From the NCBI RefSeq assembly GCF_013315695.1, contig NZ_CP054353.1: 64,000 nucleotides of DNA. The stretch is one strand, 5' to 3'. Position numbers and translations under genes: made by a program. This stretch comes from Escherichia coli (GTDB lineage: Bacteria > Pseudomonadota > Gammaproteobacteria > Enterobacterales > Enterobacteriaceae). Below, piece by piece: positions 37,681-64,000 of this stretch. The notes under the pieces are model-generated. The model saw only the letters and a list, made by a program, of their open reading frames with translations. It was not told the origin of the DNA and did no database searches. Every line of letters begins with the position of its first letter. Position 1 is the first letter of the stretch.

Positions 37681-37816
37681 TTTCTTCTCCTGAACGCGAG
37701 GTGTTCCATAGCGTAGGCTTACTGATAACGGAGTGCAATCTTGCAAACCAGTATTACCCGCTCTTAAGCATCACGTGCTATGTTATTGACACACAAAAGC
37801 GTTGAGGAACAGTGAG

Positions 37817-38563
37817 ATGATCGTTTTAGTAACTGGAGCAACGGCAGGTTTTGGTGAATGCATTACTCGTCGTTTTATTCAACAAGGGCATAAAGTTATC
37901 GCCACTGGCCGTCGCCAGGAGCGGTTGCAGGAGTTAAAAGATGAACTGGGAGATAATCTGTATATCGCCCAACTGGACGTTCGCAACCGCGCCGCTATTG
38001 AAGAGATGCTGGCATCGCTCCCTGCCGAGTGGAGCAATATTGATATCCTGGTAAACAATGCCGGCCTGGCGTTGGGCATGGAGCCTGCGCATAAAGCCAG
38101 CATTGAAGACTGGGAAACGATGATTGATACCAACAACAAAGGCCTGGTATATATGACGCGCGCCGTCTTACCGGGTATGGTTGAACGTAATCATGGTCAT
38201 ATTATTAACATTGGCTCAACGGCAGGCAGCTGGCCGTATGCCGGTGGTAACGTTTACGGTGCGACGAAAGCGTTTGTTCGTCAGTTTAGCCTGAATCTGC
38301 GTACGGACCTGCATGGTACGGCGGTGCGCGTCACCGACATCGAACCGGGTCTGGTGGGTGGCACCGAGTTTTCCAATGTCCGCTTTAAAGGCGATGACGG
38401 TAAAGCGGAAAAAACCTATCAAAATACCGTTGCATTGACGCCAGAAGATGTCAGCGAAGCCGTCTGGTGGGTGTCAACGCTGCCTGCTCACGTCAATATC
38501 AATACCCTGGAAATGATGCCGGTTACCCAAAGCTATGCCGGACTGAATGTCCACCGTCAGTAA
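37817..38563 (+). CDS. ydfG: NADP-dependent 3-hydroxy acid dehydrogenase YdfG (SDR family)
   Basis: TGATAGFG Rossmann motif and YxxxK; likely start at MIVLVTGA. Confidence 0.9.
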   Translation: MIVLVTGATAGFGECITRRFIQQGHKVIATGRRQERLQELKDELGDNLYIAQLDVRNRAAIEEMLASLPAEWSNIDILVNNAGLALGMEPAHKASIEDWETMIDTNNKGLVYMTRAVLPGMVERNHGHIINIGSTAGSWPYAGGNVYGATKAFVRQFSLNLRTDLHGTAVRVTDIEPGLVGGTEFSNVRFKGDDGKAEKTYQNTVALTPEDVSEAVWWVSTLPAHVNINTLEMMPVTQSYAGLNVHRQ

Positions 38564-38651: not shown

Positions 38652-39338
38652 ATGACCGTCGAAACGCAACTTAATCCCACACAGCCTGTCAATCAGCAGA
38701 TTTATCGTATTCTTCGTCGCGACATTGTCCATTGCCTGATTGCTCCAGGCACACCGTTGTCGGAAAAAGAAGTTTCTGTTCGTTTCAATGTGTCACGCCA
38801 GCCGGTTCGTGAAGCCTTTATTAAACTGGCGGAAAACGGTCTGATTCAAATTCGTCCGCAGCGTGGCAGCTACGTCAACAAAATTTCCATGGCCCAGGTG
38901 CGCAACGGCAGTTTTATCCGTCAGGCCATTGAGTGCGCGGTGGCGCGTCGGGCGGCGAGCATGATTACCGAAAGCCAGTGCTACCAACTGGAACAAAATC
39001 TTCACCAGCAACGCATTGCCATTGAGCGCAAGCAACTGGATGATTTTTTTGAACTTGATGACAACTTCCATCAACTCCTGACGCAGATTGCCGACTGTCA
39101 ACTGGCGTGGGATACCATTGAGAACCTGAAAGCGACCGTTGATCGCGTGCGCTATATGAGTTTCGACCACGTTTCTCCACCAGAAATGCTGTTACGCCAG
39201 CATCTTGAGATTTTCTCTGCCCTGCAAAAACGTGATGGCGATGCGGTAGAACGTGCAATGACGCAACATTTGCAGGAAATCAGCGAATCCGTGCGCCAGA
39301 TCCGCCAGGAAAACAGCGACTGGTTTAGCGAAGAGTAG
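38652..39338 (+). CDS. ydfH: GntR/FadR-family regulator YdfH (RspR)
   Basis: 228 aa; N-terminal GntR HTH and FCD domain; synteny. Confidence 0.85.
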
Positions 39339-39515: not shown

Positions 39516-39719
39516 ATGACGACCTACGATCGTAACCGTAACGCAATCACCACTGGCAGCCGTGTTATGGTTAGCGGCACCGGTCACACTGGCAAGATCC
39601 TGTCGATTGATACTGAAGGTCTGACCGCTGAGCAAATCCGCCGCGGAAAAACCGTAGTTGTTGAAGGTTGTGAAGAGAAACTGGCACCTCTGGACCTGAT
39701 TCGTCTCGGCATGAACTAA
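39516..39719 (+). CDS. ydfZ: YdfZ, small selenium-binding protein
   Basis: 67-aa ORF with strong RBS (aaaggagaaaacacctATG); synteny. Confidence 0.85.
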
Positions 39720-39726
39720 GCGTGTG

Positions 39727-39757
39727 AATGCCGCCGATGGCGGCATTGCTTTTTTTA
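39727..39757 (+). terminator. Bidirectional rho-independent terminator between ydfZ and ydfI
   Basis: Stem aatgccgcc/ggcggcatt followed by gcttttttt. Confidence 0.7.
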
Positions 39758-41215
39758 CTTCACGGAATATTTCGCCACGGTCGCTTTCGCACCATGCGCT
39801 AATAAAGACAAGTACGCTTCCGTCACTTTTGCAGTAAACAAGCTATTGTCTGGCAAATCATCACCAAAGATCGCCTTAATCGCCAGCAATGACTGGACGC
39901 GCGCTTTCCCTTCGGCACTACTTTGTACAGCCTTCTGAATAACAGGTAACAGTGGGTCACTGATTTCTATCGGATTTCCCTGTTCATCAACACCACCGAC
40001 ATAACGCATCCAACCTGCGACGCCCAGCGCCAGCAGATCGAACTTGCTGTCATGCGCCAGATGCCAGCGAACAGAATCCAACATCCGCTGTGGCAATTTC
40101 TGGCTGCCATCCATAGCAATCTGCCAGGTTCGATGACGTAGCGCCGGGTTGCTATAGCGTTCAATTAATCGGTTAGCGTAATCTTGCAAATCAACGCCCT
40201 GCACTTTCAACGTCGGCGCTTGTTCCTGCAACATCAAGGCATACGCTGCATGACGATAATGTTCATCTTCCATGCAGTCATTAATGTGCTGATATCCGGC
40301 AAGATAACCCAGATACGCCAGGAATGAATGACTGCCGTTGAGCATGCGCAACTTCATCTCTTCATAAGGCAGCACATCACTAACCAGTTCGGCTCCCGCT
40401 TTTTCCCATTCCGGACGTCCGGCAACAAAGTTATCTTCTATTACCCACTGGCGGAAAGGTTCACAGGCAACGCCAGCAGGATCGCGCACACCGGTAAGTT
40501 GTTCGATTTTCGTCAGCATATCCTCTGTCACTGCGGGCACAATACGGTCCACCATTGTTGATGGGAAAGTCACGTTTTCTTCGATCCATTGTGCCAGTTT
40601 TACATCAACAGCTTGCGCGTAGGAAGTGACAACGTCACGCATAACATGACCGTTTTCTGGCATGTTGTCACATGACATGACGGTAAATGCGGGAAGTCCT
40701 GCCGCTTTACGGCGAGCCAGCGCCTCGACAATCACCCCTGTTGCAGTTTTCGGCTGGTGGGGATTTTGAACGTCGGCAACGACCATCGGGTGATCGAGCA
40801 TTAACTGTCCGGTCGCCGGAGAGTGGAAATACCCTTTTTCGGTGATTGTCAGAGAGACAATCGCGATTTGCGGTTCACACATCGCAGCCAACACGGTTTC
40901 TAAGCCATCAATCTGTACGTGCAAGGCTTTTTTAACGACGCCAACGACGCGAGCCGTCCACGCATCGGCCGACATTTCCGCAACGGTATAAAGATTATCT
41001 TGCTGTTGTAAATCGGCAATTTGCTGTTCGCCGCCGATTAAATTGACCTCATAATATCCCCAGTCACTGAAATGTTTTGTAGCAAGAATATCGGCATACA
41101 CGCCCTGATGCGCACGGTGAAATGCACCAAAGCCTAAATGAACAATTCTTGGGGCCAGGTTATTACGATCATAAACAGGGAGCGTCGCTTTTGCTGATAA
41201 CAAATTATTTCCCAT
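39755..41215 (-). CDS. ydfI: Mannitol-dehydrogenase-family oxidoreductase YdfI
   Basis: 486 aa; mannitol DH Rossmann and C-terminal domains; synteny. Confidence 0.85.
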
Positions 41216-41303
41216 AACAATTCCTTAAATATAAATATGGCAAGCTACATGTTTTGTTATATGAATAAAAATCCCCTCTCCGGTAAGAGAAGGGATTGAG
41301 GAT

Positions 41304-42587
41304 TTAAAGACTTCTGGAAGGTTGCGCAGCTCTGACAACACGAAGTTGATCTTCCGCAGCGTCTTCCAGCGCACTTAAATCACGGTCTTTCACTTCTGGC
41401 ATTTTCAGCGCAGAGATTAAACCAATCACTGAATATGCCATGATCATAATGGCGATCGGATACCAGGATTCCGTCATGGTGCAGAAAATACCCGCCAGGA
41501 TAGGACCAAAACCGGAAGCGATAAGACCACCAATTTCTTTAGAAATAGCCATCCGGGTAAAGCGGTTTTTACAGCCGAACATTTCTGCCATGGTAATGTT
41601 TTCCAGAGCAAATAATCCCAGCACCGCACAGTTATGAATCACAATCAGTGCAACCATAATGGTGCTCGGGGCATAGCTTTTATCTACGATGATAGAAAGC
41701 ATTGGCCACGCCAGCACAATCGCAGAGGTATTCATAATAATATACGGGATCCGGCGACCTATTTTATCGGATAACCAACCAAGGAACGGAATGGTCATAA
41801 AGCCGAGAATCGAACTGATCATCAATGCATCTGTTGGAATTGCTTTGTTAAACAATAACGTCTGCACTAAATAGCCTGCAAGGAAAGTCTGAATTAAACC
41901 GGAGTTACCAGCCTGACCAAAACGCAGCCCTGTTGCCAGCCAGAAGGATTTGCTCTGGAACATGCTACCAGCAGGTGCAGGTTTTGCTGTCGGTTGGTTG
42001 CTGTCGTTAACCTTCTCAAAGACCGGGCTTTCTTTCAGATTCATACGCAACCAGATAGCAAAGACCATCACGACAACGCTCGCCAGGAACGGTATACGCC
42101 ATCCCCACGCCAGCAGTTCCTCTTTACTGAGAATGAAGAACATAAAGGCCCAGATTGCCGTTGCGCTTAAGGTTCCGCAGTTAGTTCCCATAGCCACAAA
42201 TGAGGAGATAATTCCGCGCTTACCTTTTGGCGCATATTCCGCCAGCATCGTACCGGCACCGGAAATTTCCGCGCCTGCCCCCAGCCCCTGAATAATACGC
42301 AGCGTCACCAGCAAAATTGGCGCAAACACACCAATTTGTGCATAGGTCGGCAGCACACCAATTAAGGTGGTACAGATCCCCATCATAGTTATGGTAATAA
42401 AGAGCACTTTTTTACGCCCGATTCTGTCGCCCATTTTGCCGAAAATAAATGCTCCGACAATACGCGCCACATAACCTGCACCGTAGGTTCCCATTGCCAG
42501 AATTAACGCCATTGCCGTTGATGATTCAGGAAAAAATATTTCATGAAACACTAACGCTGCGCCGAGCGAATATAACTGGAAATCCAT
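41304..42587 (-). pseudogene. ydfJ: MFS metabolite:H+ symporter YdfJ, 5'-truncated at the prophage junction
   Basis: 427-aa ORF begins MDFQLYS, i.e. inside the conserved N-terminal EWxDF region of this transporter family; prophage-side DNA starts immediately upstream. Confidence 0.7.
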
Positions 42588-43190
42588 AATTCACAGGTGT
42601 TTTTTCCCATCCTGTGGTTTCCTTGGCGTTTTCTAGGTTTTTTCAGATAGTTGCATTTTTTAAAAAGCATCCTAAGTTCGATCTCAGTGTCTATCTGGGG
42701 CCTATTTCTGTCCCATATATGCCCCAAAAAAACTCCTCAACAGATAAGTAGTTTTTTCATGGAGTTACGCGTAAAATCAATAACGGCTGGAAATCATTCA
42801 ATACTCGCACTATCGAAAAATTTACCAGCCAACCGCAGCACGTTCTTGCATAAGGCGTGTCTGCGGTTTTTCAACTATTCAGATACATCACTCCCATCAC
42901 ATTCATTCCTCCGCATCAAAGGCATATAGGCTATATCACCTTGATATTTTTCTTCTTCAGATAAAAACTGTTATCTATGTATACTTTTAAACCCAATCCG
43001 TGTAGAGTCTCTGCATAAGATAGTTTGCAGTTGCCACTTCAGCTTGCGCCATAAACCGCCTGATTTTTGCCGCCATCTGTTAGCATTCCTGTATACCTGA
43101 AACGACAATGTTTATCTACGAACTTTAAGAACACCCAGGATAAAAATTGTCAACTATATCATATATAACACATTACTAATTCGAGGCTAT

Positions 43191-43304
43191 ATGAACAGCA
43201 TACTGATAATCACTTCGCTCCTTATCATATTCAGCATTTTTAGTCATGCTCTAATAAAATTAGGGATTGGCATATCCAATAACCCAGACAAAACCGATGT
43301 ATAA
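43191..43304 (+). CDS. Candidate small hydrophobic protein, 37 aa
   Basis: ATG with RBS (cgaggctatATG); translation [37 protein letters not shown]; prediction only. Confidence 0.3.
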
Positions 43305-43372
43305 GTCAACATATCCTGAATCAGACATACAATATCGCAATGAAAATCAATAATATTTTAAGGAATATATTC

Positions 43373-43606
43373 ATGAAATCAAAAGACACCCTAAAGTGGT
43401 TCCCTGCGCAGCTTCCTGAAGTCAGAATTATCCTAGGGGATGCTGTAGTGGAAGTAGCAAAACAGGGAAGACCTATCAATACCAGAACATTGCTTGATTA
43501 CATTGAAGGAAACATAAAGAAAAAATCATGGCTGGATAACAAAGAATTATTACAAACAGCGATATCAGTTCTTAAAGACAACCAAAATTTAAATGGTAAA
43601 ATGTAA
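43373..43606 (+). CDS. ydfK: YdfK, prophage cold-shock-associated protein
   Basis: Translation MKSKDTLKWFPAQLPEVRIILGDAVVEVAKQGRPINTRTLLDYIEGNIKKK... recognised (YdfK/YnaE family). Confidence 0.9.
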   Translation: MKSKDTLKWFPAQLPEVRIILGDAVVEVAKQGRPINTRTLLDYIEGNIKKKSWLDNKELLQTAISVLKDNQNLNGKM

Positions 43607-43922
43607 TATAATAAACTTACTTTTTTATCATTTTTCCACTTTAACAACATTTTGCTCCACTTTTCCACGACCAAACAACTTGAAATCTGGTTAAAATAAC
43701 ACGCAACACTATTCTTCTTCCTTGAGTCCGCCCGGAACTCGAAAAACAAACCGAGTTAAAGCCATTTTTCACAAAATCGATTTTGGGTCTCACCAAAATT
43801 ACGGGGTTGCATACGCATTCGTTTATTTTCGAACGTGTACATACAAACATGCACAAAAATAATCAAAATTATTTTCTGAGATGCATTATGATATGAACAC
43901 CAATTTCGTATAGAGTCTCACT

Positions 43923-44513
43923 ATGTCTCGAATTTTTGCTTACTGTCGGATATCAACGCTGGATCAGACCACCGAAAATCAACGCCGGGAAATCGAAAGT
44001 GCAGGTTTTAAAATCAAACCTCAGCAAATAATCGAAGAACACATTAGCGGCTCAGCAGCAACCAGTGAGCGTCCTGGTTTTAACCGGTTGCTTGCTCGCC
44101 TGAAATGTGGTGATCAATTGATTGTGACAAAACTGGATCGCCTTGGTTGTAATGCAATGGATATCAGGAAAACAGTGGAACAACTGACCGAAACAGGTAT
44201 CAGAGTGCATTGCTTAGCATTGGGGGGCATTGACCTGACCAGTCCAACAGGAAAAATGATGATGCAAGTAATTTCAGCAGTCGCTGAATTTGAACGAGAC
44301 CTTTTACTTGAACGCACTCATTCCGGGATAGTAAGAGCCCGGGGCGCAGGGAAACGTTTTGGTCGACCACCTGTGTTAAATGAAGAACAGAAACAGGTGG
44401 TATTCGAACGGATTAAGTCAGGTGTAAGTATAAGTGCCATTGCCCGGGAATTCAAAACCTCGCGGCAAACCATTTTAAGAGCCAAAGCAAAACTTCAGAC
44501 ACCTGACATATAA
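43923..44513 (+). CDS. pinQ: Serine-recombinase DNA invertase (Pin/Gin/Hin family)
   Basis: 196 aa; N-terminal resolvase catalytic domain (YCRISTLDQ) and C-terminal HTH; prophage context. Confidence 0.9.
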
Positions 44514-44740
44514 AAAATAATCTCGGTGTGAGATGCCTTACGTCTTCCAAGCCCCCTTCCTTGCCGTAAATGGAAAGATACATCTAATTATAGAATTTAT
44601 ATGTTTTACCCTACGGCAGTGCTGGCCATTCAATATCCTGTGCAGTTGACGTATCAACACGGTTCAGCAACACCCGATACTTCTTCCAGGCTTCCCGCAA
44701 CGAGGTTTCTTCCTCCGTTGCATATACAGCTCACCTTTTT

Positions 44741-45034
44741 TCACCCACGATTAACCAACAGCCAGACCAGCAGACACGCCACCACCGGCACAGCAAAATC
44801 CATCAGGCTTGCCACATCCCACGCACGCGGATCAAAACCGCCCCACCACGGCATATTCATACGCTTGCCATGCCCGAACATTTCAATCCAGCGATATTCT
44901 GCCTGGGTATGTTCACGCGCAATGAAGAACGTACAACCAGCTATCGCCCCGTAAGCCCAGTTTCCGGTAAAAAGACCAACCAGTACCTGCGCAGCCACAG
45001 CACAAAGTGCATGAAGGAAAGGTGTTATATCCAT
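44741..45034 (-). CDS. Hypothetical small membrane protein, 97 aa
   Basis: Two hydrophobic segments flank a charged W/R-rich loop; start 11 nt after the stop of the 234-aa ORF. Confidence 0.5.
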   Translation of the reverse strand: MDITPFLHALCAVAAQVLVGLFTGNWAYGAIAGCTFFIAREHTQAEYRWIEMFGHGKRMNMPWWGGFDPRAWDVASLMDFAVPVVACLLVWLLVNRG

Positions 45035-45044
45035 TACGCCTCCT

Positions 45045-45749
45045 TTATCCGATATCGCTTCGGGAAACGGATAACAACTTTAATTCTGACTCAAGTTCAT
45101 CAACTCTTTCAGTCAGCTTCTGGATATGGTGAATCAGTGGAACAACCAGACGTTCGTACATTACACCTTCGGCAACAAGGCCATTGCTGGAAATGGTTTC
45201 CGGTGCATCATCTTCGTTGGCTGGTCGCCAGTGAACAAACTGAGGGGCAATTTCTCCTACTTCCTCGGCAATCAATCCATAGAATCCCCAGTCACGCCTG
45301 TCATTTTCGCATTGCGACCTGTACCACACAGGGCGCATCCTGAAAATGAGATCGGCGTGCTCTGAATCTATCGTCTCTACTGAATGTTTATAGCGGATAG
45401 ACGATGTTGACCGCAGCACAGACGAAATTGCAGGGTCAGGATTAAGATAAAGATTTGCCGCCGCTGTAGTTGTGCCCAATCCCCATAAATAAAACGCTTC
45501 ACGGCCAGTCAGCGGGTAAAAATCTCCGCCATAACGACCACTTTCCAGATCGTTCACTTCCACTTTGTTTTTCAGCTTATTATCAACTTCAGTTTTTGTG
45601 TATCTGGTGCTGATATCCTGCTTTGCACTGGCCATATCAGTCTGAAGCGTTGATACTTTTCCGTTAATAGAGGAAATATCTTCCTTTGCTTTACTAACAT
45701 CTCCCTTCAGCGTGGTGATGTCTCCCGGAATTACTGTTGATGTAGCCAT
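45045..45749 (-). CDS. Tail fibre/tailspike-like protein with C-terminal intramolecular-chaperone (peptidase S74-like) domain, 234 aa
   Basis: N-terminal coiled-coil-like region; C-terminal TSSIRYKHSVETID...GLIAEEVGEIAPQFV...YERLVVPLIHHIQKLTERVDELESEL resembles the autoproteolytic chaperone of endosialidase-type fibres. Motif-level recognition only. Confidence 0.5.
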   Translation of the reverse strand: MATSTVIPGDITTLKGDVSKAKEDISSINGKVSTLQTDMASAKQDISTRYTKTEVDNKLKNKVEVNDLESGRYGGDFYPLTGREAFYLWGLGTTTAAANLYLNPDPAISSVLRSTSSIRYKHSVETIDSEHADLIFRMRPVWYRSQCENDRRDWGFYGLIAEEVGEIAPQFVHWRPANEDDAPETISSNGLVAEGVMYERLVVPLIHHIQKLTERVDELESELKLLSVSRSDIG

Positions 45750-45758
45750 TTCTCTACC

Positions 45759-46040
45759 TCACATCCAGCCACGAAGTTGATGCTCAACAGCAACCGCGTA
45801 TTCATCGAATAATGACGATATTTGCGTATCCTTAATAATGCGCACGTTTACAAAATATCCATCTTCCTTAACACATACCGGTTCGCCATCTTCAGTCAGC
45901 TCTCCGGTTTCTTTGTACACGTTACCTATCACATCAATCAGAATATCATCCTGCATCGACTCGTCATTATAATAGCCAATACTTCCCATAAAGGCCGAAA
46001 AGTCGGCCCTGTCGGCAAATTTGAGTGTTAAATCTTTCAT
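45759..46040 (-). CDS. Hypothetical acidic protein, 93 aa, translationally coupled to the native stf stop
   Basis: ATG overlaps the TAA of the reconstructed stf reading frame (TAATG); no recognisable domain. Confidence 0.45.
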   Translation of the reverse strand: MKDLTLKFADRADFSAFMGSIGYYNDESMQDDILIDVIGNVYKETGELTEDGEPVCVKEDGYFVNVRIIKDTQISSLFDEYAVAVEHQLRGWM

Positions 46041-46246
46041 TAGATTGACTCCCCCATCTGAGCATCAGTCAATGCCTTGTGCCAAATACGCAGATTTCGA
46101 ACGTGTCCAAATAGGTGACGGTTGCCGGATGATGATTGACCACCAATATTAATGAAGCCTCCTGTATATTTGTGTTTTTTATAAGGAGAAAGGTGATGCT
46201 GCCAACTTACTGATTTAGTGTATGATGGTGTTTTTGAGGTGCTCCA

Positions 46247-46522
46247 GTGGCTTCTGTTTCTATCAGCTGTCCCTCCTGTTCAGCTACTGACGGGGTGGTG
46301 CGTAACGGCAAAAGCACCGCCGGACATCAGCGCTATCTCTGCTCTCACTGCCGTAAAACATGGCAACTGCAGTTCACTTACACCGCTTCTCAACCCGGTA
46401 CGCACCAGAAAATCATTGATATGGCCATGAATGGCGTTGGATGCCGGGCAACAGCCCGCATTATGGGCGTTGGCCTCAACACGATTTTACGTCACTTAAA
46501 AAACTCAGGCCGCAGTCGGTAA
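46247..46522 (+). CDS. insA: IS1 InsA
   Basis: Identical 91-aa InsA translation to copy A. Confidence 0.95.
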
Positions 46523-46944
46523 CCTCGCGCATACAGCCGGGCAGTGACGTCATCGTCTGCGCGGAAATGGACGAACAGTGGGGCTATGTCGGGGCTAAAT
46601 CGCGCCAGCGCTGGCTGTTTTACGCGTATGACAGGCTCCGGAAGACGGTTGTTGCGCACGTATTCGGTGAACGCACTATGGCGACGCTGGGGCGTCTTAT
46701 GAGCCTGCTGTCACCCTTTGACGTGGTGATATGGATGACGGATGGCTGGCCGCTGTATGAATCCCGCCTGAAGGGAAAGCTGCACGTAATCAGCAAGCGA
46801 TATACGCAGCGAATTGAGCGGCATAACCTGAATCTGAGGCAGCACCTGGCACGGCTGGGACGGAAGTCGCTGTCGTTCTCAAAATCGGTGGAGCTGCATG
46901 ACAAAGTCATCGGGCATTATCTGAACATAAAACACTATCAATAA
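46441..46944 (+). CDS. insB: IS1 InsB
   Basis: 167-aa InsB; one residue differs from copy A (G versus E near the C-terminus). Confidence 0.95.
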
Positions 46945-48379
46945 GTTGGAGTCATTACCAAGGAGAAACTACCTTAGCACCAATATTACCGTTAACCACA
47001 ACACACAATTCTCGACTTTCTGTGAATCTAAAGCCGATAATGCTTTTTCTCTCTGGTCGTTCTATAACGCTTTTATATTCTATTTTAGTGCCTTTACCAT
47101 TTGTAATGATTGCGCGTGCTCCCAAAGATGTATACCCCAAATACATATAACTTTCATCTGCAATTTCAGTTGTATCTCCCGTAGTGGAAATATTAAGAAT
47201 ACGTGCGCTACCTTCTTTGTTTGGCGATTCATCCCAATTGGTATTAACTTCTGCTAATGAACTAATAGCGGGATTGCACCAATTTAGAGAAATGGGGACC
47301 GTTACAATATCGCTGGCGCGTGTTACAGGGGATGCGCCTGTTATAATAAACGATGAAGCGCATGCCCCACCTTCAACTTGAGGGGTCGCAATATAAATAT
47401 AATCATCCGCGCCAGTGCCCACTCCTTTTGCCGGGGCATACTGAACCATTCCACCTATCATATTTTCTGTATCAAGTGCCTTAATTGTCGCCTCAAAAAA
47501 GATCCATTTGCTTGCTTCATCTTTAACAGCCCTTGCAGTAATGCGATTAGCGGCACCACCCGTCTTATCAATAGATAAATCTGTCGTATTTAAGTAAGCG
47601 TCACCTAAGAATGTGTAGGTAGAACCATCATAGTTTTCAAATCGTAATCGGCATCTTAAATTTGGAGTGCCACTTTGCACCCTGCATGATATGGTTACAT
47701 ACTTTTCTCCGCCTGTTACATCAAAACCTTTACTGCCGGAAACGGTTACTATGTTAATCGCTGAAATTTGCCCTACCATTTCTGGTTTTAATGTAAATTT
47801 TGCGTACTGGAATCCGAAATCATCTACACCTGATGCACTTAAGATCATATTTGACGACTTGTTCCATTTAGTCGGATTTGTTGAATTGATTAGCAGGTTA
47901 GTTCTTTGCCCCTCAATAAGCAGGCCATCACGTTCAAATCGTGGCTCGTCAATGGCAGCCTCTGTCAGCACACCAGATTTATTAATGTAAGTTGCTTTCG
48001 ATGCGCGTTTAAACTTTACAATCTTGTCGCCAGGCATTGTTATTTCATCGTCGCCAATAACAATTTTTTTATATGATGGCGAAAAGCCCGTAATCATATC
48101 CAGTGAATCATTAAACGGTATCCACACATCGGGCAACGGCTGCAAAACTTGTTTATACGGCTCCGCTGCCTGGCTTGCATACTCTCTGGCTGCGTCTTCA
48201 CTTGCTTTAGCTGCTGTCTGGCTTGCTGCCGATGCTTGCGCCGAGTTCGCCGCCGCAGTCTCGCTCGCCTTTGCGTTGGTTTCACTGGTTTTTGCTGCTT
48301 TTTGACTGTTAGCTGATGCAGTGGCAGAAGCAGCCGCCGCGCTTGCAGAACTGGCTGCGGCACTCTCGCTTTGGGCCGC

Positions 48380-48700
48380 TGCATCCTGACTGCTTTTCGC
48401 CGCAGTTTCACTGGCTTTGGCATTCGTTTCGCTGGTCTTCGCTGCCGTCTGGCTGGACTTTGCGTTAGTTTCACTCGTCTTCGCAGCTTTCTGGCTGTTA
48501 GCCGCAGCAGTTGCTGATCCAGCTGCTGAAGTCGCAGAACCGGCTGCCGCGCTCTCGCTTTGGGCTGCTGCAACCTGGCTGTTTTTTGCCGCAGTTTCAC
48601 TGGCTTTGGCATTCGTTTCGCTGGTTTTCGCTGCCGTCTGGCTGGACTTTGCGTTGGTTTCGCTCGTCTTTGCGGCTGTCTCGCTATTTTTCGCGTTGGT
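48380..48700 (-). repeat. Tandem 189-bp (63-codon) direct repeats inside stf
   Basis: gcagtttcactggctttggcattcgtttcgctgg... recurs at 48402 and 48591 (offset 189 bp); a more diverged copy lies upstream. Confidence 0.8.
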
Positions 48701-49229
48701 TTCTGATTTTTTGGCTGCTGTCGCGGAGTTTGCCGATGCAGTCTTTGAGGTCGCTGCCGCCTGTGCACTATTAGCTGCATTCGTTTCTGAGGTTTTCGCC
48801 GCGTTCTTCGATGATGCCGCTGCAGTTTCGGATTTCTTTGCCGCCGCTGCGCTCTGAGAGGCGGCTTCAGCGTTGCGTGCCGCTTCTTCCACCATTTCCT
48901 CAAAACGACGCAATGCCTCCGGCATGACATCATCTTCCGTCATGGCACCGAGAAAATCATTCAGCGTACCTGGTCTGGAACCTTCATAGACGGTAATGGT
49001 TCCGGCATGTGAAGGCGGAAAACCTTCAACCAGCAGGGTGACGCTGTACTGGCCATACTCAACATCCATGCTGTAACGCCCGGCTTCATCCGGATTTTCA
49101 GAGGCCACTGTGTTGACCAGTACCGTGGTGCTGTTACGCTTTGCCTTCAGTTGAATAGTGCAGTTCTGTATTGGTTTTCCCGCACCATCTTTCAGCACAC
49201 CTGAGATTTTTACTGCTGCCATATCCACT

Positions 49230-49262
49230 CCACAAAAAAGCCCGCCTGAACCGGCGGGCTGT
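49230..49262 (-). terminator. Rho-independent terminator downstream of lom
   Basis: Stem agcccgcc/ggcgggct; minus strand continues tttttgtgg. Confidence 0.7.
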
Positions 49263-49286
49263 CATAACACTGTGTTACCTGGCTAA

Positions 49287-49886
49287 TCAGAATTTATAAC
49301 CGACACCAACGATGAAACCGTCAGTGCGCCAGTCGCCACTGCCGGAACCTTCATAAGCAATATCAATGGCCACGGATTCGGTCGGGTTAAACTGCACGCC
49401 AGCCCCCCATGCCAGAGACGTGTCGCTGTGGCGACCGTCATCACTTCCGGTCAGCACATCGTGCGTTTTCCCCTTGTTGTCAGTTACGCGGATATAATCT
49501 CCGGAGAAAGTCGAAACACGGCTGTAAGCCATACCCGCCATCGCATACGCGCTGAACCATTCATTCACGCGCACAGACGGCCCCACCATCACGCTGAACC
49601 AGCGGTTACGCACGGAATCTTCATGCCAGCGGGTATCGCTGTAACGGGTAAGCTGGCGATTCTTGTCTCCTGCATAGCTGAATGACGTCACCATCCCCAG
49701 TGTGTCCGTAAACTCATAACGGTATTTCACGTTAATCCCGTTCAGATCATCGCTGCCGGGAACGTTCGTCGAGGCATGAAGATACCCCGCGCTCAGCGTG
49801 GACTGATGTTCAGATGCCCATGCAGGCGCACCGGATACGGCCAGACAAATGGCTGCGGAAAAAATGGCGGCACAAACTTTACGCAT
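49287..49886 (-). CDS. lom: Lom-like outer membrane protein (Ail/PagC/OmpX family)
   Basis: 199-aa beta-barrel with signal peptide; position between J and stf as in lambda. Confidence 0.9.
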
Positions 49887-49953
49887 AATTACCTCTCGCT
49901 TTTCTGCAATAAAAAAGGCGCCATTTCTGGCGCCCGTATATGGGTTATAAAAT

Positions 49954-50793
49954 TCAGCTGATACTGATGCCTGCGGTGGCTTTCTTCATCACCACAACCA
50001 GCAGATCGCTGATACTTGCTGTGGGATACCAGTCATTTACCAGCCATGCTGACACCGAAAACTCCAGCGTCATGTGACCGTGACCGGCAGGCATATCAAT
50101 AACGCCACTGTAAATCAGCGTATTATCCAGCGCGGTACGGTTATAAATTTCAGCACCGTTTTTCCGCACTATCAGACGGCATGAGGAGTAAATATCAGTA
50201 TGCTCTCTCTCATGTTTAGCGCCGCTGAATGCCACCGCCGGAATAACAATCTGCCGGTCAAACGGCTGATCGTCATAAACCCTGACGGTAATGGTCCCTG
50301 ATGGCCACCGTTCCGGTGCACGGGAGTCCCGGGGGAAAGCTTTGCCCACTGTTTTAACGAGATCGCCTTCAATCTGGTTCGCGGACAGTTTTCCCAGAAC
50401 CCGACAGTTCTCGTTAATCGTGACGTTGTTGAGCGTCCCGGAGTTCGCATTCACGTTACCACTGATATCCGCATTTTTAGCAGTCAGCTTTCCGTCCGGT
50501 GTCAGGGAAAATGCCGGTGGATTTCCACCACTGGTAATGGTGGGGGCCGTCAGGCGCTTCAGGAACACGTCGTTCATGAATATCTGGTTGCCCTGCGCCA
50601 CAAACATCGGCGTTTCATTCCCGTTTGCCGGGTCAATAAACGCGATACGATTGGCGGCAACCAGAAACTGACTCAGTTTGCCTTCCTCTGTATCCTCCAT
50701 GCTGAGGCCAATACCCGCGACATAATGTTTGCCGTCTTTGGTCTGCTCAATTTTGACAGCCCACATGGCATTCCATTTATCGTTGGCATCCTT
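49954..50793 (-). pseudogene. J: C-terminal 280 codons of tail tip protein J, N-terminal part deleted
   Basis: Translation ends like lambda J (...[36 protein letters not shown]); upstream boundary is the IS3-family terminus at 50794; no ATG start. Confidence 0.85.
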
Positions 50794-50801
50794 TGTAGTG
50801 G

Positions 50802-54127
<3,326 letters not shown>

Positions 54128-54142
54128 CGCTGACTCTCCGGA

Positions 54143-54883
54143 TTAACTGGCGGTGACGGTGATTTCTGCAACCGCAGCAAACTCACCATTACCGGATACA
54201 ACCGGAATGTTGACCTTGCCTGCAGCAACGCCGTTCACGGTGATGGTCATACCACTGACCGACACGGTGGCTTTTGTTTTATCCGCTGACACCGCACGGA
54301 AGCTCTTGTCGGTTGCGCCTTCCGGCTGGAAGGCCACGGTCAGCGTGGTGCTCTGCCCTTTCACTACGGAAGCACTGGCTGGCGTTACCGTCATGCCGGT
54401 GGCCGCTGTTACCGTGCTGCGATCTTCTGCCATCGACGGGCGTCCCACATTGGTGACCTTCACCGTGCGGGTGATCACTTCCTTCGCCGTCACCGCTTTA
54501 CCGATACTGCTGACCCAGCCACGGAACACATCGACCGTGCCGTTCGGGAAGCGGATTTTATAGGCACGGGTATCACCTTCATTAAACCACGCCAGCAGCG
54601 CCTGCTGCCCCTGCTCTCCGGGCATCCACGCCAGCGTGAAGCTGGTATCTCCGGCTGATTTCTGCCCCTGCCCGGTCGCAGTCCAGTCCGCATCCTCATC
54701 ATCGAGATAACTGTCGTCATAGGACTCAGCGGTCAGTTCGCCGGGCGTCAGGTCTTTAACTTTTGCCAGACGCGACCAGTCAACGTCTGAAAGCGGGTTC
54801 GCATAAGGGTCACCGCTCCCCTTATAAACCCACAGGGTGGTCCCGGCACCTTTCACCGGCATTACAGGATTTGGTACAGGCAT
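54143..54883 (-). CDS. V: Major tail protein gpV
   Basis: [45 protein letters not shown]... recognised as lambda V; C-terminal Ig-like domain. Confidence 0.9.
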
Positions 54884-54890
54884 AGCGTCC

Positions 54891-55286
54891 TCACATTTCA
54901 TAGGTAATGACATAAGTCAGATCGGCTGAACTCCACAGGCCCGCATCATCGTCGCGCCGGTAGTCATAGCCACTGGCCACCATACTGGTGATCAAATCTG
55001 ACAGTGCCGGGATATCGCTCATCACCGGATAAATCCGGGACTCCATCCACGAATCCAGCTCTGAATCCGGCACCTGAGCAGGCAGGAAAACTTCAATATG
55101 CAGCTCCGCCTGCCAGGTATCGCTGTCCAGCTCTTCGCCCGTGTATTCAGCGCCGGTGAGATAAACGGCAATTGCCGGAAAATCTTCCTCATCAAAAACA
55201 GCGGGGCGACCATCAAAAAGCGTCGCCCCGGTGTCATGCTTCTCCAGTGCATCCAGTACGGCTGCACGGAGTTCAGTATGTTTCAT
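54891..55286 (-). CDS. U: Tail terminator gpU
   Basis: 131 aa, [43 protein letters not shown]... recognised as lambda U. Confidence 0.9.
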
Positions 55287-55861
55287 CGCTTTATTACCAT
55301 TCTCAGTTGATGCTGCAGCGCATAGCCCAGCTCTTTCGGAAGACGCTCACGCCGTATCCGTTCAATATTCTGTTTAAACGCCGTGGTCAGTGGCACCGCC
55401 ATCGGGATTTTCACCACATCAATGGGGTAACGGTTTTTCCCGGCCACACGCTGCATGACATGCCACCGGCCATTTTTCAGTTGCTGAATAAACGCGCCGG
55501 GAATACGACGGTTTCCCACCACAAGCACGCTGCCGCCACCTTTCAGGGATGAACGCTGCCCCTTTTTACGACGCCTGCGTCGGGACAGGACAACCCGCGC
55601 ATTACCCAGCTTGATTACGGGCAAATCCCCCCGGTTAACCTTGATTCTGGCCTGCGGATTTTTAACCGTGGCCCTTTTCAGCCTGGCCCTTTCCTTTACC
55701 AGTTTCCGGCGTACCTTTGTCTCACGGGCAACCTGTGACGCCGACTGCGATATCGCGGATGAAGCAACGCGGTTAATGGCCATTGCGGCGGCACCAGGCA
55801 CCGCCGTTTTGCTGATACGGCTGAGGTTTTCAACGGCCTGCTCAAGACCCTGTATGGCCAT
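55283..55861 (-). CDS. Z: Tail completion protein gpZ
   Basis: MAIQGLEQAVENLSRISKTAVPGAAAMAINRVASS... recognised as lambda Z; start taken as the ATG at 55861 in the second copy of a 43-bp duplication. Confidence 0.85.
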   Translation of the reverse strand: MAIQGLEQAVENLSRISKTAVPGAAAMAINRVASSAISQSASQVARETKVRRKLVKERARLKRATVKNPQARIKVNRGDLPVIKLGNARVVLSRRRRRKKGQRSSLKGGGSVLVVGNRRIPGAFIQQLKNGRWHVMQRVAGKNRYPIDVVKIPMAVPLTTAFKQNIERIRRERLPKELGYALQHQLRMVIKR

Positions 55862-55914
55862 ACATCCCCCTTTCAACGGCCTGCTCAAGACCTTTTATGG
55901 CCATACATCCCCCT
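55829..55914 (-). repeat. 43-bp tandem duplication spanning the gpZ RBS and start codon
   Basis: 55829-55871 and 55872-55914 match at 41 of 43 positions; each copy carries aggggg-ATG-tATGGCCATA. Confidence 0.85.
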
Positions 55915-55915
55915 T

Positions 55916-56269
55916 TCAGCGGCGACGGTTAACGGCAGGCGGAACGCCACGCCCAAGCCAGAGATGACAGCTTCCGCCATCATCCGGCGATACCCGGTCT
56001 ATCCAGAAGTTTTCCTCACCGATGGTCAGCGTGTCTCCACGCCGCAGCTGCCGCACCTCATCAGTCCGGACAAACAGGGACGGGCTGGAGCCTTCAACGC
56101 GCACGCCCTGTCCGGCATAGCTGATATTTTCAGGGTCATCAAAAACACCACGTATTACTGCGCCGGACTGCTCACCGGATGTCATGGTGGCTGACGTTCC
56201 CATGTACCCGCGTATCGTTTCATCGGCGCGGGCAATGGCAGCATCGAACAGGTTATCGAAATCAGCCAC
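55916..56269 (-). CDS. FII: Head-tail joining protein gpFII
   Basis: 117 aa, MADFDNLFDAAIARADETIRGYMGTSATMTSGEQSG... recognised as lambda FII. Confidence 0.9.
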   Translation of the reverse strand: MADFDNLFDAAIARADETIRGYMGTSATMTSGEQSGAVIRGVFDDPENISYAGQGVRVEGSSPSLFVRTDEVRQLRRGDTLTIGEENFWIDRVSPDDGGSCHLWLGRGVPPAVNRRR

Positions 56270-56280
56270 AGCGCCTCCCG

Positions 56281-56676
56281 TTATTGCATTCTGGCCAGGC
56301 CACGTTCTGTCATTTCAGCTGCCACACCGGCAGAGACACGGAACGCCGTTCCCGGCAGCACAAATGCCACAGCCTCATCCCGCGTGGCGTGAAGTGCATC
56401 AGTATGCAGCGTCACCAGTGCCACAACCGTGACCAGATCAGCCGTATCAGTCACGGTATCCGGCTGCGCTGATACAACCTCATTTTCATGTCCGGTCAGC
56501 GCATTTTCCGGGCTGACAGATGTGTCCTGACCGGCAGCGTCATCCGTGTCATCAAGCTCCTCTTCCAGCTCTGCCACACGGAGCACCAGTTCTTCTTTCG
56601 TCCCCGTCAGGCTGACATCACGGTTCAGTTGCTCACCCAGCACCTGAAGACGGGCAATCAGTTCATCTTTCGTCAT
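56281..56676 (-). CDS. FI: DNA-packaging protein gpFI
   Basis: MTKDELIARLQVLGEQLNRDVSLTGTKEEL... recognised as lambda FI; ORF track extends further upstream. Confidence 0.85.
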   Translation of the reverse strand: MTKDELIARLQVLGEQLNRDVSLTGTKEELVLRVAELEEELDDTDDAAGQDTSVSPENALTGHENEVVSAQPDTVTDTADLVTVVALVTLHTDALHATRDEAVAFVLPGTAFRVSAGVAAEMTERGLARMQ

Positions 56677-56717
56677 GGACTCCTCCACAAAGAGAAAATG
56701 GCCCCGAAGGGCCATGA

Positions 56718-57743
56718 TTACGCCAGTTGTACGGACACGAACGCATCAGGGTCAGCCAGCAGCATCAGCGGTGCTGACTGAATCATGGTGAACTCACGCG
56801 CCGGATCGCCGGTGGTCACCCAGTTTTTCGGGTAGCGGGCAGAAGCGTTAATACCTTCGCGCTGTGCGTCCGCATCCTGAATGCAGCCATAGGTGCGCAG
56901 ACCGCGTGCCTGAGTGTTCCCCAGCACCATCGTGTTGTCCGGAAGGAAGTTCTTTTTGACGTCGTTTTCCACGTACTGTCCGGAATACACGACGATCGCC
57001 GTATCGCCATACATCCCCTTATAGGACACCGCTTCGCCCAGGTCTTTTACCGCTGTCTCCAGCTCGGAATGAGAGCCGCGACGGGTATCCAGCTTCTCCC
57101 TGACGGCTTTGAAGGAACGGAACAGCGCCCAGCCTTTCGGATCAAACACGATGATATTCACCACGCCGCTGGCGTTCAGCGCATAGGCTTCGATATCGTC
57201 GGTCGGGTCATACGTGGACTTGTCACGCTTGCTCCACTCCGTACCACCGGACTGTGTGATGTTGTTCGCCGCACTGCGGCCCATATCCACTTCAACCGGA
57301 TCGAAGGCTTCACCGGTCATGGTGTATTTGCCCTTAAGCACGGCAGAAACTGCCTGCATCTCTTCGACCTGAGCAATGGCCAGCTCTTCGTCTCGCATGT
57401 TCTGCATGATGATGCGACGGCGGCGGTAAGCCGGGTCCGCCAGATTCTGCGGATCTTCATCCGGCAGGCGACGCAGGGTCATCTGCGGATTCACCTCATG
57501 CTTCGGCTTGACATATCCCGGTGTAAATTCAGAGGTGGAGCCGCCACGGGAGCGGATAACCTCACCGGAAACAATCGGCGAAACGTACAGCGCCATGTTT
57601 ACCAGTCCCGGAATTTGTGAGAGATAGACTTTCTCCGTGGTGAAGGGATAGCTCTCACGGAAAAAGAGACGCAGAAACAGCGGATCAAACTTAAATTTCT
57701 GCTCATTTGCCGCCAGCAGCTGGGCGGTTGTGTACATCGACAT
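56718..57743 (-). CDS. E: Major capsid protein gpE
   Basis: MSMYTTAQLLAANEQKFKFDPLFLRLFFRESYPFTTEKVYLSQIPGLVNMALYVSP... recognised as lambda E. Confidence 0.95.
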   Translation of the reverse strand: MSMYTTAQLLAANEQKFKFDPLFLRLFFRESYPFTTEKVYLSQIPGLVNMALYVSPIVSGEVIRSRGGSTSEFTPGYVKPKHEVNPQMTLRRLPDEDPQNLADPAYRRRRIIMQNMRDEELAIAQVEEMQAVSAVLKGKYTMTGEAFDPVEVDMGRSAANNITQSGGTEWSKRDKSTYDPTDDIEAYALNASGVVNIIVFDPKGWALFRSFKAVREKLDTRRGSHSELETAVKDLGEAVSYKGMYGDTAIVVYSGQYVENDVKKNFLPDNTMVLGNTQARGLRTYGCIQDADAQREGINASARYPKNWVTTGDPAREFTMIQSAPLMLLADPDAFVSVQLA

Positions 57744-57798
57744 AAAAAAATCCCGTAAAAAAAGCCGCACAGGCGGCCTTTAGTGATGAAGGGTAAAG

Positions 57799-58131
57799 TT
57801 AAACGATGCTGATTGCCGTTCCGGCAAACGCGGTCCGTTTTTTCGTCTCGTCGCTGGCAGCCTCCGGCCAGAGCACATCCTCATAACGGAACGTGCCGGA
57901 CTTGTAGAACGTCAGCGTGGTGCTGGTCTGGTCAGCTGCAACAGCCAGAATGCCAACGGCAGCACCGTCGGTGGTGCCATCCCACGCAACCAGCTTACGG
58001 GTGGCGGTGTCAAGCATCAGCGGAGTCATTGCAGGCGCTTTCGCACTCAATCCGCCGGGCGCGGTTGCGGTATGAGCCGGGTCACTGTTGCCCAGCGGCT
58101 GGTAATGGGTAAAGGTTTCTTTGCTCGTCAT
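57799..58131 (-). CDS. D: Capsid decoration protein gpD
   Basis: [41 protein letters not shown]... recognised as lambda D. Confidence 0.95.
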
Positions 58132-58140
58132 AAACATCCC

Positions 58141-59440
58141 TTACACTGGTGTGTTCAGCAAATCGTTAACGGCATCAGATGCCGGGTTACCTGCAGCCAG
58201 TGGTGCCGGTGCACCCTGCATCAGACGATCCAGCGCAGTGTCACTGCGCGCCTGTGCACTCTGTGGTGCTGCGGCCAGAATGCGGCGGGCCGTTTCCACG
58301 GTCATTCCGGGGGTTTCTGCCAGCACGCGCGCCTGTTCTTCGCGTCCGTGAGCCTCCTCACAGTTGAGGATCCCCATAATGCGGCTGTTTTCTGCCGCAA
58401 CCGCTGCGGTGATCTGCGTGTTCACGTCCGGCTGCGCCGCGCTGGCGTTTTCGCCCTCCGTCGCTTGCACCACGTCAGTAACGTCAGCCTGCGAAGCGGT
58501 GGCTGAAACAGTTGTTGATTGAGTCTCTTTGGTCATTCGCCCTCCTGAGAGACGGGATTTACGTGCATCCAGTGCATCACGCATGACGGTGATCGCATCG
58601 GTGCTGTTAACAAGTTCATCAGCCAGTCCGGCATCAATGGCCTCCTGACCGCTGTACACTGCAGCCTCGGTATCCAGCACAGCCTGCACGGACAGGCCGG
58701 TATATGCCGACACCTTCTGCGCAAACATCCGGCGGGTTGCATCCATCCGGGACTGCAGTGTCTCCCGGACGTCATCCGGAAGATGGCTGTAGGGGTTGCC
58801 ATCCACCTTATGGCTGCCGCTGTAAATCAGCGTGATTTCCACGCCCTGTTTCTCCAGCGCAGCACCGTAATTACTGTGAGCCATCATGACGCCGATGGAG
58901 CCTGTCCGGGCGGTCTGCGTGACCAGACGCCGGGAGGCGGCACTGGCAAGCAGCTGACCTGCGCTGCAGTTCATGTCATTGGCCAGCGCCCATACCGGCT
59001 TTATGTCACGCACACGGGCGATGATGTCAGCGCAGTCAAATGCCCCTGCCACCATCCCGCCTGGCGTATCCATATCGAGCAGAATGCCGTCCACCATCGG
59101 GTCGCTGGCAGCCTGTTGCAGACGGGCGATAATGCCGTTGTAACCGGTCATCCCCGAATACGGCTGCAGCGCCCGCGTCCGGCTGACCAGCGTGCCGGAC
59201 ACCGGCAGCACGGCGATGCCGTTCATGACCTGATAACTGCGGGCCTGCCGTGGTCCGTCATCATCAACGGATAACGCCAGCGCCGCGGGTGCCTCTCCGG
59301 CAGTCAGGCTGTCGCCGGATACCGCATCCGTCAGGCGGCTGATCCCAAGCTGGCCTGCAAGCGCACAAAAGAAAACCCGCGCATAGGCGGGTTCAAGCAT
59401 CAGCGGCTCATTAAAGGCCATACTGGTAATATGCGGGAGA

Positions 59441-59460
<20 letters not shown>
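58141..59460 (-). CDS. C: Capsid maturation protease gpC (scaffold Nu3 nested in frame at its 3' end)
   Basis: S49-family ClpP-like domain; start set at the GTG aligned with lambda C (VTAELRNLPHI), overlapping the B stop by 20 nt. Confidence 0.85.
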
Positions 59461-63141
<3,681 letters not shown>

Positions 63142-63167
<26 letters not shown>

Positions 63168-63687
63168 TCAGCAACCCCGGTATCAGTTCATCCAGCGCGG
63201 CTGCTTTGTTCATGGCTTTGATGATATCCCGTTTCAGGAAATCAACATGTCGGTTTTCCAGTTCCGGAAAACGCCGCTGCACCGACAGGGGGATCCCGTC
63301 GAGAATACTGGCAATTTCACCTGCGATCCGCGACAACACGAAAGTACAGAATGCGGTTTCCACCACTTCAGCGGAGTCTCTGGCATTCTTCAGTTCCTGT
63401 GCGTCGGCCTGCGCACGCGTAAGTCGGTGGCGTTCGTACTCAATAGTCCCTGGCTGGAGATCTGCCTCGCTGGCCTGCCGCAGTTCTTCAACCTCCCGGC
63501 GCAGCTTTTCGTTCTCAATTTCAGCATCCCTTTCGGCATACCATTTTATGACGGCGGCAGAGTCATAAAGCACCTCATTACCCTTGCCACCGCCTCGCAG
63601 AACGGGCATTCCCTGTTCCTGCCAGTTCTGAATGGTACGGATACTCGCACCGAAAATGTCAGCCAGCTGCTTTTTGTTGACTTCCAT
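63142..63687 (-). CDS. Nu1: Terminase small subunit gpNu1
   Basis: 181 aa, MEVNKKQLADIFGASIRTIQNWQEQGMPVLRGGGKGNEVLYDSAAVIKWYAERD... recognised as lambda Nu1. Confidence 0.95.
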
Positions 63688-63877
63688 TGCTCATTCCACG
63701 GACAAAAACAGAGAAAGGAAACGACAGAGGCCAAAAAGCTCGCTTTCAGCACCTGTCGTTTCCTTTCTTTTCAGGGGGTATTTTAAATAAAAACATTAAG
63801 TTACGACGAAGAAGAACGGAAACGCCTTAAACCGGAAAATTTTCATAAATAGCGAAAACCCGCGAGGTCGCCGCCCC
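63688..63877 (-). other. cos: cos site: cosB between Nu1 and cosN, cosN 12-nt cohesive-end sequence at 63866-63877
   Basis: Minus strand reads GGGCGGCGACCTCGCGGGTTTTCGCTATTTATGAAAATTTTCCGGTTTAAGGCG (lambda left end); the preceding ...CGATCCGACAGGTTACG matches the lambda right end. Confidence 0.9.
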
Positions 63878-64000
63878 GTAACCTGTCGGATCGCCGGAAA
63901 GGACCCGAAAAATGATAATAATTATCATCTACATGTCACAACGTGCATCTACGCCATCAAACCACGTCAAATAATCAATTATGACGCAGGTATCGTATTA

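Follow-up and report, generated by a model that had tools for sequence, protein, structure and literature searches.

A Qin-type lambdoid prophage junction at an 11-bp attachment core inside the transporter gene ydfJ of Escherichia coli

Introduction

Where does the host chromosome give way to prophage in a 64,000-nucleotide (nt) stretch of the Escherichia coli contig NZ_CP054353.1 (assembly GCF_013315695.1), and what has become of the gene at the boundary? In this stretch, which we call "the window" and always mean at its full length, a minus-strand open reading frame (ORF) of 427 amino acids (aa) for a transporter of the MFS superfamily, here termed ydfJ′, adjoins about 0.8 kb of AT-rich DNA that leads, as first described, into ydfK and pinQ. 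The initial annotation had read this arrangement as integration of a prophage into ydfJ at the Qin site, and the comparisons reported here bear that reading out. In particular, window positions 42579–42589 are almost certainly one of the two recombinant attachment (att) junctions of a Qin-type lambdoid prophage (PPydfJ in the literature on enterohaemorrhagic E. coli, EHEC), and everything from position 42590 to the end of the window is prophage.

The gene belongs to the rspAB / ydfJ-ydfI cluster, which has reportedly been linked to the catabolism of L-gulonate and D-mannonate; literature searches pairing ydfJ or rspB with gulonate gave nothing relevant to the substrate of the transporter. Both the 28-codon truncation of ydfJ and the use of ydfJ as an integration site are already known, and the prophage boundary is in this sense ordinary: ydfJ is a common locus of phage integration, in K-12 as well as in other strains (PMC8112680), and integration of Qin entails the loss of a promoter and a 28-codon truncation of YdfJ (PMC6379469). 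The main value of the present analysis is a correct annotation; of modest interest besides is whether the truncated transporter and the split rspAB / ydfJ-ydfI cluster retain a function.

The junction and its attachment core

To define the boundary, we compared the window junction with the uninterrupted ydfJ of strain SMS-3-5, both junctions of the Qin prophage of K-12, the far junction of isolate AF3 (OZ547117.1), and the phage attachment site (attP) of four free phages (Tritos, HannyBb, mEp460_ev081, and PhiR42_1). Alignment with the uninterrupted ydfJ, which had been proposed as a check, locates an 11-bp core, GAAATCCATAA (TTATGGATTTC on the ydfJ strand), at positions 42579–42589. The core is identical in the window, both K-12 junctions, the bacterial attachment site (attB) of SMS-3-5, and the attP of HannyBb, mEp460_ev081, and PhiR42_1, and in the four-way alignment the flanks swap partners exactly at its 11 bp, as expected of a clean reciprocal crossover. 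These alignments show that a lambdoid attP and ydfJ underwent a reciprocal site-specific crossover at the 11-bp core, and the corresponding empty site exists. Specifically, TTATGGATTTC covers the ydfJ codons Phe27-Met29-Asp30-Phe31, and the truncated ORF starts at native Met29, whose ATG is located inside the core.

The two ends of K-12 Qin account for the whole of the interrupted gene. The window junction is the left junction of K-12 Qin, base for base, and the annotated Qin of K-12 MG1655 (1632277–1652745) starts exactly at the core, with a 427-aa ydfJ at one end and a 36-aa "ynfP" adjoining rspB at the other. Read on the minus strand, ynfP begins MTIEKHERSTKDLVKAAVSGWLGTALEFMDF, and the window ORF begins MDFQLYSLG; joined at GAAATCCATAA, the two yield a continuous 455-aa protein. 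SMS-3-5 has this gene intact (1,368 bp, 455 aa), 57 bp downstream of rspB and within a co-directional series of rspA, rspB, ydfJ, and ydfI.

A single-base difference was seen at the far junction of AF3, which reads GAAATCCATAAAATTC (OZ547117.1 segment ~20080–20095) versus GAAATCCATAAATTC in K-12 (segment 22747–22762) and in attB; the extra A right after the AF3 core reflects either a sequencing error in a homopolymer or a genuine indel within the 5′ stub of ydfJ.

Both the occupied and the empty site are widespread. Megablast of window positions 41000–44600 against 5,426 complete E. coli genomes returned two records that are 100% identical over that range, those of AF3 and of strain MSB1_4I (LR898874.1). 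Across the same genomes, a 301-bp junction probe finds matches spanning 80% or more of the probe in 3,168 (58%), a count that includes EHEC strains having a DinI-type arm at ~90% identity, and the empty site, represented by a reconstructed rspB-ydfJ attB, matches over at least 80% of its length in 2,011 (37%). The strain under study carries, at a site occupied in over half of sequenced E. coli, a long relative of K-12 Qin that is damaged by insertion sequences (IS).

The phage arm and the far end

The 783 bp between the core and ydfK (42590–43372) have a GC content of 0.369 (whole window, 0.493; ydfJ, 0.470), and the content drops to 0.31–0.41 across roughly 42500–43850, ahead of the pinQ ORF. 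This segment had been described as AT-rich and non-coding. The base composition (36.9% GC) agrees with the first half of that description; the second half is too broad, as the segment includes the small gene ynfT and also candidate integrase arm-binding sites.

The segment is phage DNA. It matches Tritos, HannyBb, PhiR42_1, and mEp460_ev081 over its full length at 98.0–99.9%, and in all four phages exo, xis, int, and the core are contiguous with it; ydfK and a pin-type invertase gene come after it in three of the phage records, and the PhiR42_1 record ends within the ydfK gene. The part nearest the core (42590–42750) has 99.6–99.9% identity to free-phage DNA contiguous with the core, int, and xis, and ~78% identity to Stx2a phages and prophages at ydfJ. 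In lambda terms, the window junction corresponds to the P-arm side, attR.

The motif TG(C/T)CCCA(A/T)A may mark integrase binding in this arm. A k-mer search revealed a tandem pair of copies 11 bp apart in the int-side attP arm and three copies in the window-side arm, a family size that was reached in 6 of 30 shuffles, and TGTCCCATATATGCCCCA stays unchanged in the P arms of Stx2a phages, which have otherwise diverged by ~22%. We regard the copies as candidate integrase arm-binding sites only, because the motif count does not exceed that of the shuffles, and we retain them because they are conserved in diverged arms. The integrase of the relatives has 426 aa and comprises an Arm-DNA-bind_2 and a Phage_integrase domain (the Tritos and AF3 copies are 99% identical); being two-domain and lambda-Int-like, it should therefore need arm sites. 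In these relatives the tyrosine integrase gene adjoins the core (Tritos, HannyBb, mEp460_ev081, and PhiR42_1) or rspB (AF3).

The opposite end of the prophage, with int and the lysis genes, had been expected beyond the window, an expectation that the nearest relative, AF3, supports. The window stops in nohA (ORF 63142–63687) and the terminase gene (ORF 61242–63167). AF3, which matches window positions 44000–64000 at 99.8% identity and 96% coverage, has its integrase, excisionase, and lysis genes (essD, rrrQ, and rzpQ) ~24 kb past the position equivalent to the window end. Beyond that position, AF3 contains ynfO, ydfO, gnsB, cspI, rzpQ, rrrQ, essD, cspB, cspF, ydfT, relBE, hokD, dicC, dicA, and dicB, followed by an IS2-split exo, xis, an intact int, and a second core abutting the ydfJ 5′ stub and rspB; its prophage spans ~45.7 kb. 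In MSB1_4I the int-proximal end is gone (segment 33035–38172): beyond IS2, which borders a truncated exo, come a fimbrial usher gene that is itself truncated, ydeS, ydeR, IS4, and fumB, and the prophage is joined to the ydeT-ydeR fimbrial region by an IS2-linked rearrangement. This arrangement suggests that in MSB1_4I an IS-mediated inversion or deletion removed rspAB, int, and the 5′ stub of ydfJ from where they normally lie.

Integration and the fate of ydfJ

By its profile matches, ydfJ′ is a genuine ORF of an MHS/MFS transporter, as it exceeds the family cut-off: TIGR00883 (metabolite/H+ symporter) aligns from profile position 7 and gives 453.5 bits (cut-off 443.45). The Pfam model MFS_1 scores 128.6 bits, but its alignment begins only at profile position 33, compared with position 2 for the reconstructed 455-aa YdfJ; ydfJ′ thus begins within the conserved first transmembrane region, in agreement with the initial annotation, which had placed its start in the conserved N-terminal region. 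Residues 1–28 are gone, the first transmembrane helix (TM1) is incomplete, and the conserved N-terminal motif is cut. An intact N-terminus immediately upstream of position 42587 would have spoken for an uninterrupted gene. The translation there reads "...KKHL*IMDFQLY...", with an in-frame stop two codons 5′ of the ydfJ′ ATG, and therefore no N-terminus is encoded beside the ORF. The prophage boundary is fixed at 42579–42589, and ydfJ is to be annotated as 5′-truncated in this strain.

The integrase domains and the lambda paradigm point to the following course of events. A phage tyrosine integrase, bound to arm sites and core, would have recombined attP with attB inside codons 27–30 of ydfJ, across GAAATCCATAA. 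The first 28 ydfJ codons and the upstream rspA-rspB, with any promoter serving them, would have stayed at the far, int-side end (~45.7 kb off in the nearest relative), and the remaining 427 codons are at the window side, adjoining the phage arm. We infer that the promoter of ydfJ′ is lost and that the gene either does not function or is expressed poorly.

No observation conflicts with the junction itself; four points limit the account. First, loss of ydfJ function is presumed, and the truncated ORF is intact. Second, the int end of the element lies outside the window, and the same end is lost in MSB1_4I, so its intactness here cannot be assumed. Third, the attP core of Tritos differs at one base, GAAATGCATAA (Tritos record segment 3490–3500). 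Fourth, the att of EHEC PPydfJ phages is given as 18–19 bp (PMC8112680), versus 11 bp of perfect identity here, a discrepancy that probably reflects a differing definition of the core or differing phages. The Tritos mismatch, if real, falls within the crossover region.

The alternative that survives best concerns the fate of the gene: the truncated transporter, with half of TM1 gone, might still be made via Met29 from a phage-side or read-through promoter and might retain some activity. With the native Met29 codon inside the att core, a 427-aa ORF that can be translated is left after integration; its reading frame is uninterrupted over 1,284 nt, and the K-12 RefSeq annotation now lists the 427-aa form as a coding sequence (CDS), "putative transporter YdfJ". 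Weak hints come from K-12, where a ydfJ knockout was among the azithromycin-resistant strains in one high-throughput screen (PMC9405208), and where ydfJ RNA changed upon DicC induction in RNA sequencing. The ratio of non-synonymous to synonymous change (pN/pS) is low, at 0.011 versus the truncated K-12 allele (27 synonymous differences and 1 non-synonymous difference) and 0.051 versus the intact SMS-3-5 allele. However, the low ratios are equally explained by divergence older than independent, recent integrations, which are plausible because active phages with this attP exist. Divergence from K-12 is 2.2–2.6% on the host side of the junction and 0.4–2.7%, in a mosaic pattern, across the phage side (42590–44513). 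Because the integrations are possibly independent and the prophage side is mosaic, neither pN/pS nor the divergence profile at the junction is informative about selection after integration.

The expression signals likewise argue against a translated and active ydfJ′. By eye, there is no Shine-Dalgarno-like sequence just upstream of the ydfJ′ ATG, and the minus strand has no promoter-like site within ~770 nt upstream of it. A promoter and terminator scan of positions 41200–44000 returned 8 promoter-like sites versus 7.7 expected from shuffles. With no enrichment and no near minus-strand candidate, the scan gives no ground for proposing a promoter in the phage DNA that drives ydfJ′. Both TM1 and the conserved motif at the N-terminus are cut, and the NCBI annotation pipeline PGAP calls ydfJ a pseudogene in this lineage ("incomplete; missing N-terminus" in MSB1_4I). 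We consider residual activity of the truncated transporter unlikely, and it is slightly less likely again that ydfJ′ is still expressed and that selection maintains it in the ~58% of E. coli genomes with a prophage at this site. If the latter were true, integration would remodel the rspAB-ydfJ-ydfI sugar-acid locus and not simply kill it.

The origin of the junction leaves far less room for doubt than the fate of the gene. The 427-aa ORF opens with ATG and is a plain CDS in the K-12 annotation, and could on that basis be taken for the true full-length gene, with the AT-rich 0.8 kb as its native regulatory region and no interruption at all. This reading is scarcely credible and is refuted by the empty-site genomes, the SMS-3-5 ydfJ, and the four-way att alignment: 84 more in-frame nt are joined directly to rspB in 2,011 genomes, the AT-rich 0.8 kb is near-identical to free-phage DNA beside int (98.0–99.9%), and the missing 28 codons are present at the other prophage end. 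An origin of the junction in IS-mediated deletion or illegitimate recombination, to which the wealth of IS in the prophage might point (IS1 at 46192–46959 and an IS3/IS30 cluster at ~50.8–53.2 kb; relatives also have IS2 and ISNCY farther along), is just as improbable and is effectively refuted by the same alignment, since the junction has no IS end at it, the break falls exactly at the attP core found in free phages, a position common to 3,168 genomes and K-12, and the reciprocal junction exists. Integrase-mediated crossover at the core is the reading that we retain.

Relation to other prophages and phages

The window element is a longer relative of Qin, not the K-12 remnant. It shares with K-12 Qin (Kim) the core, the junction sequence, the ynfT-ydfK-pinQ order, and the 28-codon truncation of ydfJ. 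Qin is a 20.5-kb remnant with a broken intQ and a stfQ-nohA deletion, which joins stfQ to nohA and leaves neither tail nor head genes. The window element, in contrast, keeps lom, part of J, and tail, head, portal, and terminase genes, has IS insertions of its own, and has a complete relative of ~45.7 kb with intact int and xis. In addition to pinR, Rac has the paralogous genes ynaM and ynaE.

The PPydfJ prophages of EHEC and Shiga toxin-producing E. coli (O157, O26, O145, and O177, with effectors such as nleC and nleG) occupy the same gene at the same core, and their P arm is 78–90% identical and retains TGTCCCATATATGCCCCA. Unlike the window element, they have a DinI-like gene and type III secretion system effector genes beside the junction in place of ynfT-ydfK-pinQ. 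The four free phages also differ from the window copy: their records are of 45–49 kb and show no IS features in the att-proximal stretches examined, whereas the window copy is integrated and IS-damaged.

The layout of the system resembles that of lambda Int and attP in its xis-int-core-arm order, in an integrase that combines arm binding with a tyrosine recombinase, and in a short core with long AT-rich arms. It differs from lambda in core sequence and in target, which is the gal-bio intergenic region in lambda and the inside of a gene here, and the arm, integration host factor, and Xis sites of the present system are guesses only. Within K-12, Rac (ttcA) and e14 (icd) are comparable as cases of site-specific integration in a host gene end, in which the junction alters or duplicates that end: e14 integrates at the 3′ end of icd, where 163 bp are duplicated as pseudo-icd′, and with Rac the only change is to the TtcA N-terminus (PMC6379469). 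In the Qin-type phage, unlike in e14 and Rac, the lost 28 ydfJ codons are not replaced.

Remaining features of the window

Coordinates of the junction and of the features on its two sides are collected in Table 1.

Table 1. Features of the window around the ydfJ junction
Feature	Position	Strand	Basis or remark
ydfG	37802–38563		ORF-tool listing; annotated CDS in MSB1_4I is 747 bp
ydfH/rspR	38652–39338		ORF listing
ydfZ	39516–39719		ORF listing
ydfI	39755–41215	−	ORF listing
Terminator-like hairpin between ydfJ stop and ydfI start	41270–41297	−	Consensus scan: 12-pair stem and T-rich tail; pattern match only
ydfJ′, 5′-truncated MHS-family MFS transporter	41304–42587	−	427 aa, residues 29–455 of 455-aa YdfJ
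att core	42579–42589		GAAATCCATAA; crossover site, 11 bp; TTATGGATTTC on ydfJ strand
attP arm on the side away from int (lambda P arm equivalent)	42590–42750	+	Common to all phages integrating at ydfJ
Candidate integrase arm-type sites, TG(C/T)CCCA(A/T)A	42709–42717, 42720–42728 (direct); 42696–42704 (inverted)		Span 42696–42728
ynfT, 37-aa small protein (YnaM/YnfT family)	43191–43304	+	Annotated in MSB1_4I and K-12
ydfK (cold shock protein YdfK), prophage accessory gene	43373–43606	+	ORF and annotation
pinQ, serine recombinase (DNA invertase family)	43923–44513	+	ORF and annotation
Complete IS1, 768 bp	46192–46959		9-bp target duplication AAGGAGAAA
IS3/IS30 cluster	~50802–53238		IS3-family fragment, intact IS30 transposase 51772–52923 (+), another transposase fragment
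Prophage body, continues past window end	42579–64000		Tail-fibre genes, lom, truncated J, IS3/IS30 cluster, tail and head genes, portal, terminase, nohA

On the host side, the ORF listing gives the block in order of position as ydfG, ydfH/rspR, ydfZ, and ydfI, then the 427-aa minus-strand ORF, and the flank is collinear as dcp-ydfG-rspR-ydfZ-ydfI-ydfJ′. The true start of ydfG probably lies a few codons inside the listed ORF.

On the phage side, the annotation of MSB1_4I lists ynfT, ydfK, pinQ, and tail-fibre genes after ydfJ. The ynfT gene matches NCBIfam NF041477 with 63.9 bits against a cut-off of 35, has a translation identical to that of K-12 YnfT, and fills 114 of the 783 bases of the AT-rich segment. 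A 92-aa ORF in the same segment (42651–42929) gave no NCBIfam match and was treated as non-genic. The ydfK product has no Pfam or NCBIfam match, and pinQ matches invertase and resolvase models of NCBIfam, all under their equivalog cut-offs.

Rfam scans of positions 41000–45000 and 42590–43372 returned nothing reaching a gathering score, and the AT-rich segment matches no known RNA family. A weak match to CssrB, a small RNA of Shigella, was seen at 42834–42971 on the minus strand (28.7 bits, gathering score 76; E = 0.0009 in the 783-bp search). It rests mainly on the 3′ hairpin CGCAG-CACG...CGUG-CUGCG, and could be due to chance or to a diverged homologue carried by Qin-like DNA. A mir-263 match in the same scans is at chance level and was rejected. 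An IS009 match on the minus strand (44645–44743) scores 65.7 bits against a gathering score of 117 (E = 8e-14) and overlaps what remains of a gene for tail-fibre assembly, just 3′ of pinQ. The predicted RNA fold of 42575–42725 on the plus strand, which lies downstream of int in the free phage, has a z-score of −2.45; a sib-like retroregulator was considered there, and no canonical terminator was found.

A search for invertase crossover sites with a hix/gix consensus gave 0 matches in the window. Three TTCGAACGTGTACA-like motifs (43827–43848, 45907–45923, and 46095–46109; two direct and one inverted) bracket pinQ and small tail-fibre modules and are unlike that consensus.

Within the prophage body, ~17 kb of tail-fibre, lom, J′, tail, head, portal, and terminase genes lie between pinQ and nohA. 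The IS3/IS30 cluster occupies the expected place of the N-terminal part of gpJ and of the tail genes back to the tape-measure gene; what is left of this region is a 283-aa C-terminal piece of J (49954–50805) and the tail assembly genes from T onward (53289 on). Because the N-terminal part of gpJ and these tail genes are displaced by the cluster, the prophage is probably unable to make tails, and this copy would be defective for particle production. The complete IS1 is inserted near the 3′ end of the gene for the long side-tail fibre, at a distance of ~150 bp, and is probably absent from the closest genomes, because AF3 covers only 96% of 44000–64000. On the minus strand at window position ~1204, a perfect terminal inverted repeat of IS1 marks a second IS1 copy, far from the junction.

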